DNA from: an uncultured Rhodospirillaceae bacterium
GTDB taxonomy: Bacteria > Pseudomonadota > Alphaproteobacteria > CAAGCB01 > CAG-977
DNA length: 64,000 bases
Direction of reading: 5' to 3'
Assembly: GCA_900550445.1 (NCBI GenBank)
Contig: URSF01000003.1
Coordinates: forward strand, 1,158 to 65,157
The translations under genes and the position numbers were made by a program. The notes beneath the pieces were generated by a model. It was not told the DNA's origin, did no database searches, and saw nothing but the letters and a program-made list of their open reading frames with translations. Positions 35,808 through 49,647 of this stretch are shown one piece after another; position 1 is the stretch's first letter; each line of letters starts with the position of its first letter.

Positions 35808-36539
35808 ATGACACAACCGCAGTCCTGTGAAAAAAATTGCAAAATTACTTTATATATTGACACGCCCACTTTTATGCTGAAGCCGTTCAAAGACCATAAA
35901 AACCATTGTCAGATCCGCAGTCTGATTGAACACGGTCATTTAAACACGCTACCGTTCACAGGCCATTCTTTTATCGGGCTGACCGACGAAAACGGCCGCG
36001 AAGAACGCTGGGGATATACGACAAAAGCGGACGTTGCCGGAGTGATCGAAACAATCCGCGGCATAGAAGGCAATTTTATCAGCGAAAACGCCAATCAGCA
36101 GTATAATGAAGCGATCGTTTACCCCGTTTCCCGGGATCAATATCTGGCGGCGAAACAAAAAACCGAAGAATATCGGCAAAATCCGGGAACATATAAATTA
36201 TTTGAAAAAAACTGTTCAACCGTTGCGCGGGATATTCTGGCCGTGGCAAAAGTCGACGAACTGCCCGGCAAAGGATTAGGATTGACGCCGTACGGACTGG
36301 CGGCAAAAAAGCGCGTCACTTTGGCTCAGCGCCGCTGCGAGGCTTCCCTTTTTAAAATTAAAAATGCCGTACGCTCTATGTTCGGACAGAAAAAAGTGCC
36401 GCGCCGGGAACTATTGGATTCCCTGCGCGCGAAACCGGTTCCCGTTCCGATTAAAACGGCAATGCGCACCGCCGGAAAAGAGCCGATGACGCCGATTAAC
36501 GTCGAAACCGTCATTGCGAACATTGCCCGGGGCCGGTGA
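35808..36539 (+). CDS. PPPDE/DeSI-like (permuted papain fold, His-then-Cys) hydrolase, copy 2, with an ...RGR C-terminus
   Basis: PFTGHSFIGLTD and GTYKLFEKNCSTVARDILAVAK. It is collinear with copy 1 over its full length and ends ...ETVIANIARGR. Confidence 0.6.
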   Translation: MTQPQSCEKNCKITLYIDTPTFMLKPFKDHKNHCQIRSLIEHGHLNTLPFTGHSFIGLTDENGREERWGYTTKADVAGVIETIRGIEGNFISENANQQYNEAIVYPVSRDQYLAAKQKTEEYRQNPGTYKLFEKNCSTVARDILAVAKVDELPGKGLGLTPYGLAAKKRVTLAQRRCEASLFKIKNAVRSMFGQKKVPRRELLDSLRAKPVPVPIKTAMRTAGKEPMTPINVETVIANIARGR

Positions 36540-36592
36540 ATATTATTTACTTTTTTAACAAAAAGAAAAAAGACGCTTTCCCTTTGTTTTTT

Positions 36593-37081
36593 TTATCCGG
36601 CGACCGACATCGGCCCGTATTTGTTTTCTCCGTCACTTTTCAGGCACATAAAAAACAGCAACAGAACAGAGAAAATCAAGGATAACGAAGAACACAACGT
36701 AGCCAAAGAATCGATTTGCATTTGCATGGAAAATCCCGCGCCGAAAGTCAACGCCACCGGGATAACAGTCCATAATCCCGTCTGTCCGATATCATGCAAC
36801 CGGCGAACGGCGACAGCCCATGCCGGGAAAAAAGAAAGAAAAGAATAAACGCCGGCCCCCTGCGCGCCGACCACCAATCCGATAAAGCAGCTGATAATCA
36901 GGTTAAAACAAACAAAAGACCAAAACATCATTCTGTTTGACCGGCCGGAAAATACAAAATATTTTTTCCAGGCTTCGATAAAATACATAAAAGCCTGTGA
37001 AATTGAAACAGACGAAGCCGTACTAAAAATTTCCTGCGCTTTTTCCTGCGCCTGCCGGCCTGTTTTTTCGATATTCGGCAT
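36593..37081 (-). CDS. DUF805-family inner membrane protein
   Basis: YFVFSGRSNRMMFWSF...AVAVRRLHDIGQTGLW matches the DUF805 (YhaH/YhaI-like) signature. Confidence 0.7.
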   Translation of the reverse strand: MPNIEKTGRQAQEKAQEIFSTASSVSISQAFMYFIEAWKKYFVFSGRSNRMMFWSFVCFNLIISCFIGLVVGAQGAGVYSFLSFFPAWAVAVRRLHDIGQTGLWTVIPVALTFGAGFSMQMQIDSLATLCSSLSLIFSVLLLFFMCLKSDGENKYGPMSVAG

Positions 37082-37250
37082 AATAATCCTCCCTTGTTAA
37101 GGTAAATAACGAAAAACAAGTCTAAAAGAAAAAAAACAATAAAAAAATCTACACAAAATATTTTTAAAACAAACAGTTATAAACATTCTGAGTTGTTTAA
37201 AAAAAATAAAAAAAAGCTATCCTGATTCCAATATAATAAGGAATCCTTTC

Positions 37251-37991
37251 ATGCAGACGTCATTTGAATATATTTCGGCTTTTTTTATCGTATCGGGTTT
37301 TCTGTGCGCTTTCATTATGCTGGCCGACATCTTTAATAATCGTCCGCAAAAAATAAAAATCATGAACAGCGTCTGGTTTTTAACTGGAATATGGGCGTCA
37401 TGGATCGGACTGTACGTTTATTTTAAAATCGGACGGGCAAATAAAATCAAAAATAATGAAGACGACGATAATCCGATCGGGGCACAAAATCCCGTTTTCA
37501 ATACGACCGGCCGGCAGACTATGTCTGAAAAAATTCTGTTGTCAACATTGCATTGCGGCGCCGGCTGCGCTTTGGCGAACCTTATCGCGGAAAGCGGTAC
37601 TTATTTTTATTCCGCTTATTCCGGCAGTACGGCTTTGGCAATCAGATGGGGCCTGGATTACCTTTTGGCAATAGTGTTCGGCCTTGGATTCCAATATGCG
37701 GCAATCAGTCCGGAAAAAAGGCCGCCTATCCCCGGAAAAATAATCCGGACGGCTTTTAAAACCGCCTTTCCGGGATTGACGGCCTGGCAGGCCGGAGTAT
37801 TTGCTTACAGCTCTCTGATTTTTTTCGGATTTCATGATATGATCGGAAAAAATTCATGGAGCTTTTGGTTCATGATGCAGATCGCTATGTTCTGCGGCTG
37901 CTTAACGGCTTATCCCGTTAACGGCCTGTTGATCAAATTCCACGTAAAAAAAACATCTGACAAAGGAGAAAGACCATTAAAACACTATTAA
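37251..37991 (+). CDS. DUF4396-like polytopic membrane protein
   Basis: 246 aa with several TM helices and the STLHCGAGCALANLIAE motif, recalled as the DUF4396 signature. Confidence 0.5.
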   Translation: MQTSFEYISAFFIVSGFLCAFIMLADIFNNRPQKIKIMNSVWFLTGIWASWIGLYVYFKIGRANKIKNNEDDDNPIGAQNPVFNTTGRQTMSEKILLSTLHCGAGCALANLIAESGTYFYSAYSGSTALAIRWGLDYLLAIVFGLGFQYAAISPEKRPPIPGKIIRTAFKTAFPGLTAWQAGVFAYSSLIFFGFHDMIGKNSWSFWFMMQIAMFCGCLTAYPVNGLLIKFHVKKTSDKGERPLKHY

Positions 37992-38017
37992 AACTGATTC
38001 TGTACGCAGTCATTTTA

Positions 38018-47722: not shown

Positions 47723-47746
47723 AGACCGGATTTTCCGGTCTTTTTA
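47721..47746. terminator. bidirectional terminator between mscS and HExxH paralog 2
   Basis: agaccgga-ttt-tccggtct, flanked by A-rich and T-rich runs. Confidence 0.7.
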
Positions 47747-47747
47747 T

Positions 47748-48647
47748 TTAACGTCCTCTGATCGCCGCGGCCGCTTTTAATAAGACGGGCGAAGGCGCTT
47801 TTTGTTTTTGTTCGTTTCTGACCGGCAGCTTTGCAACCGATTTATCACCGGTCTGCGCCATCATTTCCTTGCCTTTATCCGACACGGCCATATTTTCGGC
47901 GCGGTCAAAAAACGCTGCGGAAATATACGGCTGACCGTTATGCAGACAAACCGACGCCAGCTGTTCGTTGGAAACCGCCGCTTCCTTTTTCACCGAATTA
48001 AAATCTTTCTTTTTTTGTTCCGAATTCATGCGGATCTGCGCCACATACTGCTTTTCATAAGCTTCCTGATAATTCTTATAACCGTACCACGCCTGAAAAG
48101 ACGCACGCATCGCTTTTGTTTCATCGCCGGATTTTTCCATTTCCCCGACATAAGCCCGCATCATCGGCGTTTCCATTTCTTTTTCAAAAACCTGCGGATA
48201 TTCGTCTTTCATCTGATAAGCGAAAGCCGCCTGATGCGCGCAGGCGTCCGCTTCCAGCGCGCGGTTCAATTTAATGAAATCATACGCGTTCAGACTGCCG
48301 ATAAAATCCGTTGTTTTGTCTTGGCCGCTGATTTTATTGATCCGTTCGACCTGACGGATATGCGTACATTCATGAATTAAAATCGGCGCCAGCTCCATCT
48401 GACGGCGGTAAGAATCCAGCCGCACGACCTTGCGGTCATAATCGCACGCGCCATTAACACCGAACATGGCTTCGTACATATAGGAATATCCCTGAAAGGC
48501 CACGGCATTCATTGTTTCCTGCCCTTTGGGAAACTGATAGGCGATATTCAGCAGACTGGTGAAATTTTCACGATCCGCCCCGCCCAAAGCATAAATCGAA
48601 TTATTAAGCTTTGCAAAGCATTCAAAATTGGATTTTTGATCCGGCAT
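47748..48647 (-). CDS. HExxH zincin-like protein, paralog 2, ...RGR C-terminus
   Basis: ILIHECTHIRQ ... NRALEADACAHQAAFAYQM. It ends LLKAAAAIRGR and starts 1 nt after the stop of paralog 3. Confidence 0.6.
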   Translation of the reverse strand: MPDQKSNFECFAKLNNSIYALGGADRENFTSLLNIAYQFPKGQETMNAVAFQGYSYMYEAMFGVNGACDYDRKVVRLDSYRRQMELAPILIHECTHIRQVERINKISGQDKTTDFIGSLNAYDFIKLNRALEADACAHQAAFAYQMKDEYPQVFEKEMETPMMRAYVGEMEKSGDETKAMRASFQAWYGYKNYQEAYEKQYVAQIRMNSEQKKKDFNSVKKEAAVSNEQLASVCLHNGQPYISAAFFDRAENMAVSDKGKEMMAQTGDKSVAKLPVRNEQKQKAPSPVLLKAAAAIRGR

Positions 48648-48648
48648 T

Positions 48649-49647
48649 TTATCGTCCCCTTTGATTTATCGCTGCCGACACGACAGCCTGTTTATTTCCG
48701 GATTTTTCCGGCGGAGCCGTCAATTCCCCTTTTTTATTGCGCAGACACATCGACCAAACGGATCGGTCAGGCTTTGCCCCCGGAACGGACGCGGCATAAT
48801 CGTCGATCATGGCGGAAATTTCTTTTTGATCCGACTGTTTAATGGAAAACGGCCGGCCGCTGTTTAAATCATCTGCGGTCATATACGGCTTTCCTTTATA
48901 GCAGCACATTTTCAAAACGTCCGCGACGGGATATTCCTTTGAAAAGCAGTCGGGATCCTTTTCTTTTTTGGCATATTCGGCGATCCGTTTAAACCCGTCC
49001 TTGTGCCATTTGTCGTAATAGTCGCGGTAATAGTCGCATTCATACCATGCGGCGAAACAGGCCTGCATCGCTTTTCTTTCGTCATGGGACTTTTCCATTT
49101 CCCCGACATAAGCGTGAAACATCGGCAATCCGGTTTCCTTTGCCTTTTCATAAACGTTCGGCATGATCTCCTTGCATTCGTAAACGAAAGCCATTTCATG
49201 CGCGACGGCGTCAGCCTCTATCGCGCGGTGCATTCTGAGCGACGAAGCGACTTGCGTATGTTCGTAATTCGGCCTGTTTTCGCTTTCCCTGGAATACTGA
49301 ATGGCGTGGCGGCCCTCGTGCACGGCGGTTTGAAGCATATATTCAAACCCGAACGACGGGTTGATCACGACTTTTTTCTGATTCGGCGCGCAGAAGCCGC
49401 CGAAATTTCCTTTTTCAAACGCGAAAGAATACCCCAGCTTTGACAGCGTCGTCAGCGTTTCGCGGCCTTTTTTGGTTTTCATTACGGAATCAATGATTTC
49501 TTCAAACAAAATTTCTTCTTTTACCGCGTTTTTCGCATCAGAGGCCGTAAAAGCTTTTGTCAAAACCTTTTTTGCCTTTTGCGCCGCGCGGCCGCAGGCA
49601 TACTTTTTGTACGATTTCTGCGTAAATCCGGCAACCGTTTCAGCCAT
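48649..49647 (-). CDS. HExxH zincin-like protein, paralog 3, ...RGR C-terminus
   Basis: TAVHEGRHAIQ ... HRAIEADAVAHEMAFVYEC. It shares AYVGEMEKS..(D/E)..KAM.A.F.AWY with paralog 2 and ends VVSAAINQRGR. Confidence 0.6.
   Translation of the reverse strand: MAETVAGFTQKSYKKYACGRAAQKAKKVLTKAFTASDAKNAVKEEILFEEIIDSVMKTKKGRETLTTLSKLGYSFAFEKGNFGGFCAPNQKKVVINPSFGFEYMLQTAVHEGRHAIQYSRESENRPNYEHTQVASSLRMHRAIEADAVAHEMAFVYECKEIMPNVYEKAKETGLPMFHAYVGEMEKSHDERKAMQACFAAWYECDYYRDYYDKWHKDGFKRIAEYAKKEKDPDCFSKEYPVADVLKMCCYKGKPYMTADDLNSGRPFSIKQSDQKEISAMIDDYAASVPGAKPDRSVWSMCLRNKKGELTAPPEKSGNKQAVVSAAINQRGR

Follow-up and report, generated by a model that had tools for sequence, protein, structure and literature searches.

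We analysed a 64,000-nucleotide (nt) stretch of DNA from an uncultured Rhodospirillaceae bacterium (contig URSF01000003.1, positions 1,158 to 65,157; hereafter the window), in which four open reading frames (ORFs) end in the tripeptide Arg-Gly-Arg (RGR) followed directly by the stop codon. An initial annotation had read this ending as a common tag on predicted hydrolases of unrelated folds. All four ORFs lie where it had placed them: 45639-46649 (-) ends in AARRGR, 47748-48647 (-) in AAIRGR, 48649-49647 (-) in NQRGR and 35808-36539 (+) in IARGR. No further RGR-ending ORF of at least 60 amino acids (aa) was found in any frame of the window. The four genes, and the tails of the three that are related to one another, are as follows.

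48649-49647 (-): 332-aa DUF6782 zincin-like protein with HEGRH (Pfam DUF6782, E 4.9e-40), folded domain at about residues 20-310
48649-48693 (-): tail of the 332-aa DUF6782 protein plus stop, ...QAVVSAAINQRGR, predicted to be a free peptide on a disordered linker
47748-48647 (-): 299-aa DUF6782 paralogue with HECTH (Pfam DUF6782, E 2e-35)
47748-47792 (-): tail of the 299-aa paralogue plus stop, ...VLLKAAAAIRGR
45639-46649 (-): 336-aa DUF6782 paralogue with HEARH (Pfam DUF6782, E 1.5e-40)
45639-45683 (-): tail of the 336-aa paralogue plus stop, ...AAAAAKLMAARRGR
35808-36539 (+): 243-aa His/Cys enzyme of permuted NlpC/P60-like (H-box/NC) fold, whose C-terminal helix ends in IARGR

The three ORFs with HExxH are paralogues belonging to Pfam family DUF6782 (PF20573, E 1e-35 to 1e-40), with scores of 139.4, 122.6 and 137.7 bits that all exceed the gathering score of 27 bits; the fourth is an unrelated His/Cys protein. 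The tail codons differ between the genes just as the initial annotation had listed them, and pairwise identity over the final 45 nt of the genes is only 29-40%. Conservation is therefore at the peptide level and not the result of recent DNA copying. Signal peptides are absent from all four proteins, as had been claimed, the maximum 12-residue Kyte-Doolittle mean being at most 1.07 compared with 3.06 in a secreted neighbour.

Other parts of the same description had to be revised. The four genes are not of lower GC content (47.6-50.0% versus 48.9% for the window), nor do they lie in accessory DNA, as the DUF6782 trio is found in conserved synteny across many strains and species, in the order RNase J, 160-aa ORF, two DUF6782 genes, MscS, one DUF6782 gene, RuvX and GatCAB. 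The C-terminal 80 or so residues of the paralogues, said to be hard to align, are largely part of the predicted domain: the AlphaFold2 fold reaches about residue 310, and the free tail comprises only the last 20 residues or so. The window is ordinary chromosome (flagellar genes, the ATP synthase operon, a ClpA/B-like gene, DapF, GltX, LysS, GatCAB, RNase J and Nuo) with no secretion-system genes besides the flagellar ones, and variable DNA begins at the tRNA-Ser gene at 39149-39238.

Comparison across the family shows that the DUF6782 zincin-like proteins are characterised by a short peptide anchored at the C-terminus, of which RGR is one version. The peptide is about 12-15 residues long and consists of a hydrophobic/Ala-rich stretch (A-[VA]-[VLI]-[AS]-A...), basic or polar residues, a small penultimate residue (G, S, E or A, by falling frequency) and Arg-COOH. 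About 90 of 105 close homologues (36-95% identity) end in Arg, including 38 in GGR, 23 in KGR and 8 in RGR. From 808 kb of DNA, drawn from about 30 genomes, came 73 unique DUF6782 proteins. R is the last residue in 62 of them and GR the last two in 44, and the Arg-ended set includes paralogues only 26-40% identical to the query. An exhaustive profile search returned 948 DUF6782 clusters at 50% identity. Arg is the last residue in 82% (113/137) of mutually diverse full-length representatives (GR, 45; SR, 21; ER, 13; AR, 8), and HExxH is present in 137/137; H110, E111 and H114 are invariant.

The terminal Gly-Arg is conserved as strongly as the HExxH region among orthologues of 48649-49647, with an information content of 3.4 bits at G331 and 4.0 bits at R332, compared with a mean of 3.4 bits for the HExxH region and 1.0-1.5 bits for the linker. 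Orthologues of 47748-48647 end in ...AAIKGR, ...AAARGR or ...MAKGR, and those of 45639-46649 in ...LIAAKRGR or ...LIAARRSR. The initial annotation had proposed looking for the tail in orthologues, and Arg endings of the RGR/KGR/GGR type indeed prove to be retained family-wide, with the terminal Arg kept between paralogues of only 22-29% identity. The ending common to the three window paralogues is inherited, and its deep conservation shows selection. The DUF6782 tail is a selected, positively charged, extreme C-terminal peptide on signal-peptide-less proteins of an expanded, lineage-specific family. C-terminal targeting or regulatory peptides as such are an already-known kind of feature; an Arg-COOH-anchored tail as the defining feature of so large and unstudied a zincin family, from uncultured Alphaproteobacteria of the gut, has not previously been described, and a literature search found no publication on DUF6782.

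The DUF6782 family occurs only in uncultured Alphaproteobacteria of the gut and rumen (30 reference-genome loci and all named members of diverse clusters), and proteins identical to those of the window were found on human gut metagenome contigs. Its genes form arrays of 3 to more than 8 paralogues per locus, dispersed among housekeeping genes. In the neighbourhoods that we inspected, no recurring neighbour (immunity genes, chaperones, shell proteins) was seen around either the DUF6782 or the His/Cys family, and no immunity-like genes adjoin the DUF6782 arrays. An identity as anti-phage defence or as a named NCBI family was rejected, with no PADLOC and no NCBIfam matches.

The AlphaFold2 model of the 332-aa DUF6782 protein, built on a 44-sequence alignment and containing no metal, has a mean predicted local distance difference test (pLDDT) score of 90.5, and its fold spans residues 20-310. 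Residues 314-332 have pLDDT <50 and include a short helix (319-327) that is not docked. The tail is thus modelled as a free peptide, tethered to the folded catalytic domain by a linker that is disordered, flexible and poorly conserved. A conserved, free, Arg-ended tail suggests a recognition tag, and a recognition or degradation tag had been one of the initial annotation's two alternatives. A sortase or PEP-CTERM-type signal was rejected, as there is no signal peptide and the hydrophobic stretch (about 8-10 residues, mostly Ala, Val and Ser) is too short for a membrane helix.

Structure searches with Foldseek returned only zincins as neighbours of DUF6782, all weak (TM-scores 0.25-0.3, E at least 0.09): anthrax lethal factor as the best match, IrrE/PprI, minigluzincins and Wss1, with proabylysin (4jiu) and selecase also among the matches. 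IrrE was the sole return of a PDB sequence search with the family profile (E about 0.2), and some members have weak matches to Peptidase_M91 (NleD) and M78. With HExxH in a predicted zincin-like fold, DUF6782 proteins are putative zinc proteases. They share the HExxH zincin core with anthrax lethal factor, NleD (Peptidase_M91) and Legionella RavK, the last of which has the same set of remote neighbours. Unlike these toxin and effector zincins, DUF6782 has no shared delivery domain; the similarity is as weak as the TM-scores above, and host targeting is without support.

Profile positions of about 36-120 in DUF6782, an N-terminal part with the block 'GRETL..LSKLGYSFAFE...KKIVLNP' before HExxH, behave as a separable module, repeated 2-4 extra times around one catalytic domain in P0167, P0170, P0173 and P0180 (700-750 aa). 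A 399-aa protein at L023 18298-19497 has this module, lacks HExxH and ends in the tail ...ALAVKAKQQGR (p=4e-5 against a position-specific tail profile trained on 124 DUF6782 tails only). We rejected it as an independent tail-bearing family, as it contains the DUF6782 module. The tandem two-domain proteins P0190 and P0191 have two HExxH domains and one tail, at the extreme C-terminus.

The fourth RGR-ending gene, 35808-36539 (+), lies next to a paralogue:

35056-35793 (+): adjacent His/Cys paralogue, 245 aa, 49% identical, ending in ...SSLAHIHS with no Arg terminus (tail p=0.5)

G52-H53 and N135-C136 are invariant in 37 sequences of the His/Cys family, placing the catalytic motifs in permuted order. 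The window protein has a Lnb_N/DUF4105 match of 18.8 bits, below the cut-off of 22.2, and Foldseek matches it best, though weakly (E 0.5; TM 0.5 by target), to the Aichivirus 2A H-box/NC protein. Together, the motifs and these weak matches point to the permuted NlpC/P60 lipid-acting group, a clade of enzymes that has been described (PMC12994826), and not to PPPDE. The initial annotation had called the protein PPPDE-like; no PPPDE match was found, and a permuted NlpC/P60 (H-box/NC, DUF4105/LRAT-like) fold describes it better. The His ... Asn-Cys motifs in permuted order are shared with DUF4105/Lnb, LRAT/PLAAT and Tox-Act1, a toxin of type VI secretion systems (T6SS). Unlike those enzymes, the His/Cys protein has its own conserved helical C-terminal subdomain, and its match stays below the Pfam threshold. 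The His/Cys pair is stably placed next to lysS, and no T6SS or immunity context was found at the inspected His/Cys neighbourhoods.

The C-terminus of this protein differs from the DUF6782 tail. The whole C-terminal half is conserved in the His/Cys family, and the last helix (residues 232-241, about 36501-36536) is predicted confidently as part of the fold. Family endings are mostly ...VIASISxIR[ST] or ...ILNKMAAWRL, and ...NIARGR or ...NMAAGR occur in two sub-clades only. Scored with the DUF6782 tail profile, the 35808-36539 tail gives p=0.0105 against internal peptides, a value that predicts about 0.6 such matches among the roughly 60 genes of the window, and most His/Cys relatives give p 0.1-0.7. 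The likeness to DUF6782 therefore lies almost wholly in the terminal tripeptide. We estimate from C-terminal residue frequencies a chance of about 3% that some unrelated gene of the window would end exactly in RGR. For the His/Cys RGR, an origin beyond chance is borderline. Most likely it arose by coincidence or convergence within a C-terminal helix that is the His/Cys family's own and structurally integrated, and it is probably not the same tag as that of DUF6782. The proposal of a common tag on unrelated folds is weakly supported; set against it are the profile value of p≈0.01, the status of the tail as a DUF6782 hallmark and the folded state of the His/Cys helix.

Directly upstream of the His/Cys pair, 33042-34796 (+) encodes a 584-aa protein with a signal peptide, N-terminal CxxC/Cys-rich repeats (weak Opy2 match; furin-like/VSP-like) and a long Gly/Ser/Thr/Asn-rich C-terminal part, assigned to no Pfam family. 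A 55-aa ORF replaces this gene in strain L051.

A further Arg-ended protein of the window stands apart from both families:

39567-40724 (-): 385-aa helical, Lys/Glu-rich protein ending in ...KVLKGYKVR, with no Pfam domain

All 10 members of its family (47-97% identity) end in R, 7 of them in ...VLKGYKGR, and the protein is unrelated to DUF6782 (hhalign probability 0.3%). This family, with its ...KGR ending, may be a true second carrier of the tag. A BID-domain identity was rejected (NF033856 at 19.3 bits, E 8.6e-4, against a cut-off of 45, and in only 2/10 members); the family profile found no BID structure in the PDB. The 385-aa protein contains an internal repeat (RPFFNKLGAKIKAVWSKDY... and LSFFKRIGAKLKSHTFAF...), and its gene invariably has the same pair of small orphan ORFs at its sides (40802-41095 (-) and, downstream in other strains, a 65-aa ORF), between gatB and the tRNA-Ser gene.

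We also looked for DUF6782-like C-termini in proteins outside the family and found a register-specific excess, with 25 matches at offset 0 and about 8 at offsets of at least 3 (p≤0.01). The best non-family match to the tail profile (p=1e-5) is a 222-aa protein at L009 7810-8478 (+), whose tail reads ...AAKVKAVQQAGR; its gene lies immediately upstream of a His/Cys family gene, and an apparent lipobox (...LASC) can be read from its sequence. The DUF6782 tail is thus essentially a family hallmark, with one or two possible independent carriers. The GR-ending NuoL, NuoN, TldD and NagZ were set aside as housekeeping proteins whose endings are most likely chance, and the idea that the tail generally tags orphan proteins (those with no recorded Pfam domain) was rejected, as only 3/27 of them end in R. 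Some large orphans carry repeats rich in proline (MPPPMPTKGKVVPPP...) that recall actin-regulator or formin-binding motifs of a eukaryote-like kind, and have no Pfam domain: L027 16135-19041 (+) and 19031-20722 (+), and L026 18209-20335 (+), with the endings ...EKYYGR, ...VRQGESR and ...TQTRDASR.

We tentatively favour, at somewhat less than even confidence, a reading of the DUF6782 tail as a terminus-anchored tag recognised in trans, with export as its most likely purpose. A partner would grip the free Arg carboxylate terminus, making the tail a targeting or recognition tag, and export or translocation by machinery yet to be identified would be the most likely use. The strict conservation of the very last residue indicates that a free terminus is recognised. 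Because Arg is kept across 22-29% identical paralogues and on the HExxH-less relative, the tail is most likely read in trans; recognition in trans is also favoured because the tail is undocked in the AlphaFold2 model, because the L023 relative without HExxH keeps it, because tandem P0190 and P0191 carry a single tail at the extreme end, and because the 385-aa family has a similar ending. Export is the likeliest use because the proteins have no signal peptide, their catalytic domain is most like secreted toxin/effector zincins, and their paralogues are expanded in an effector-like manner.

Known terminus-anchored tags include the peroxisomal PTS1 (-SKL-COOH) and the C-terminal cargo-loading peptides of encapsulins (GSL-type motif). 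DUF6782 resembles these in its short conserved extreme C-terminus, variable disordered linker and folded enzyme, and recognition would again need the free terminus; it differs in its motif, which is not of the GSL type, and in being essentially one family. No encapsulin or shell gene was found in the inspected neighbourhoods, and an encapsulin-type tag was rejected on motif and context. A broader version, in which the tail is an undescribed terminus-anchored export signal (a bacterial 'PTS1') carried by a few unrelated proteins as well as by the effector-like zincin family with its more than 900 clusters, seems to us unlikely. Its further carriers would be the 385-aa family and some NlpC/P60-like enzymes, and its reader a so far unrecognised receptor or secretion machine.

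Several observations weigh against an export tag read in trans. The tag is nearly confined to one family, and a family-restricted tail may equally be what a cis-regulatory element would look like. No export machinery was found: homologues of type IV secretion system (T4SS) genes are absent from the inspected neighbourhoods and from a partial sample of lineage DNA (1.0 Mb), and no linkage of DUF6782 to flagellar genes was seen. Enrichment of GR endings beyond the two families is only mild (cluster-weighted count 6.2, with 1.5-2.8 expected), several of the proteins bearing them are plainly housekeeping, and few orphan proteins end in R (the 3/27 given above). Shadow ORFs reach profile match rates like those of real genes, and the register-specific excess is therefore soft evidence. 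The apparent lipoprotein-type signal on the tail-matching L009 protein is ill-suited to cytoplasmic recognition. In some tandem DUF6782 forms the first domain still closes with what resembles a remnant of the tail, and the tandem-domain comparison of cis and trans action had a mixed outcome.

The main rival to a tag read in trans is autoinhibition, which we hold to be the less probable account and, by itself, unlikely. The peptide, acting on its own protein or on a paralogue, would bend back into the active-site cleft of the zincin domain, with its carboxylate on the zinc and the Arg side chain filling the specificity pocket, and the protease would stay inactive until the tail is displaced or removed. 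A structural neighbour provides a precedent: proabylysin (4jiu), which like selecase is among the Foldseek matches, has a C-terminal tail that inserts into the cleft, with the final residue touching the zinc (PMC5557861). Like DUF6782, the minigluzincin zymogens proabylysin and projannalysin are small soluble HExxH zincins, weak structural neighbours, with a C-terminal tail whose function hinges on its final residue. With a fold of about 290 aa, DUF6782 is considerably bigger than they are, and it ends in Arg, not Val. A tail that is essentially family-restricted and strictly anchored at the C-terminus, the retention of HExxH in all 137 representatives and a flexible linker that would allow the tail to reach the cleft all agree with latency. 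What speaks against it is that the AlphaFold2 model, from its 44-sequence alignment, leaves the tail undocked at pLDDT <50 (a metal-free model with which latency may still be compatible), that the module-only HExxH-less relative retains a perfect tail, that P0190 and P0191 have two HExxH domains and one tail, and that a comparable ...KGR end is found in the unrelated 385-aa family. A degron, by which a cytoplasmic AAA+ protease or adaptor would recognise the tail and keep a potentially dangerous protease scarce, appears very improbable. C-terminal degrons dependent on a free carboxylate are well established (ssrA/ClpX, FtsH), the DUF6782 tail is predicted to be disordered and accessible, and the window has a ClpA/B-like AAA+ gene at 19515-21680, though such genes are universal. 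To our knowledge, bacterial C-degrons end in non-polar residues (LAA/AA) and not in Arg. DUF6782 tails end in [GSAE]-R, on which ground an ssrA-like/ClpX degron was rejected; no adaptor candidate was found, and instability would be a puzzling trait for one family to conserve throughout its more than 900 clusters.

The initial annotation had linked the ending to VirB/VirD4-type signals, and we consider it improbable that RGR is a common translocation signal of this type on an effector repertoire of HExxH and His/Cys proteins. The tails are C-terminal, net-positive and Arg-containing on proteins with no Sec signal, Agrobacterium VirD5 and VirD2 also end in Arg-rich peptides, the DUF6782 paralogues have expanded as effectors do, and the neighbouring 385-aa protein has its weak BID-domain match. 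The T4SS substrates of Agrobacterium and Bartonella (VirE2, VirF, VirD5; Bep proteins with BID and a basic tail) are likewise alphaproteobacterial proteins without Sec signals, and their signals are extreme C-terminal, unstructured and net positive with Arg. The known Agrobacterium-type signal is a hydrophilic, Arg-rich C-terminal peptide with no fixed last residue (PMC8525350), fuzzy where the DUF6782 tail combines a conserved hydrophobic/Ala stretch with a strictly terminal Arg. Its consensus R-x7-R-x-R-x-R is absent from DUF6782 tails, which often have 1-3 basic residues (...ALKQNGGR). No match to VirB1/4/6/8/9/10/11, VirD2, VirD4, TraG or TraA came from tblastn searches of 1.0 Mb of lineage DNA (partial and locus-biased, from about 30 genomes), no T4SS gene was found in the window or the inspected neighbourhoods, and the literature yielded nothing specific on secretion systems of the lineage. 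The His/Cys tail is marginally DUF6782-like (p≈0.01), lies in a folded helix and has RGR in one sub-clade only, and the BID lead failed at 19 bits versus 45, with 2/10 members and no PDB support. The type IV interpretation of the tail is unproven, though with so partial a genome sample type IV secretion may yet be present in the lineage. Given a real DUF6782 tail, it is about as likely as not that the His/Cys RGR, and perhaps the KGR of the 385-aa family, are coincidences without a common reader. Coincidence is consistent with the p=0.0105 of the 35808-36539 tail among some 60 window genes, with the p 0.1-0.7 of most His/Cys members and the HIHS ending of the next-door paralogue, with the different structural status of the DUF6782 and His/Cys tails, and with the low count of R-ending orphans (3/27). 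Against it, two separate His/Cys sub-clades reached ...A[RA]GR, the 385-aa family ends invariably in R, and DUF6782-like termini show their register-specific excess.

DUF6782 is among the most expanded protein families in widespread uncultured Alphaproteobacteria of the human gut and rumen, and at stake is whether these bacteria export a large protease arsenal, and by which route, or keep their proteases latent. The strictly terminal, family-wide Arg tail offers a concrete experimental handle, and if it is an export signal, the secreted repertoire of the lineage could be predicted from sequence.

The tRNA-Ser GCU gene (39149-39238) and the DNA to its left form an integration hot spot whose cargo differs by strain (L046-L052). 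One type of cargo comprises a 615-aa integrase with an AAA_14/DUF4143 ATPase, a DEAD helicase and a Fic protein; others carry a Dnd phosphorothioation cluster, or restriction-modification genes and autotransporters.

The ATP synthase operon at 12382-19303 (-) encodes beta, (a small ORF), an AtpI-like 'ATPase_gene1', a, (c), a b+OSCP-like fusion, alpha and gamma, an order closer to that of an N-type ATPase operon than to the usual F-type arrangement; the related genome L044 has a separate F0-type cluster. At 1670-4663 (-), a 997-aa protein with a TPR-type (ANAPC3) match and no other recognisable domain adjoins the flagellar cluster FliM, FliL, FlgF, FlgG, FlgA and FlgH at 6.5-11.7 kb.

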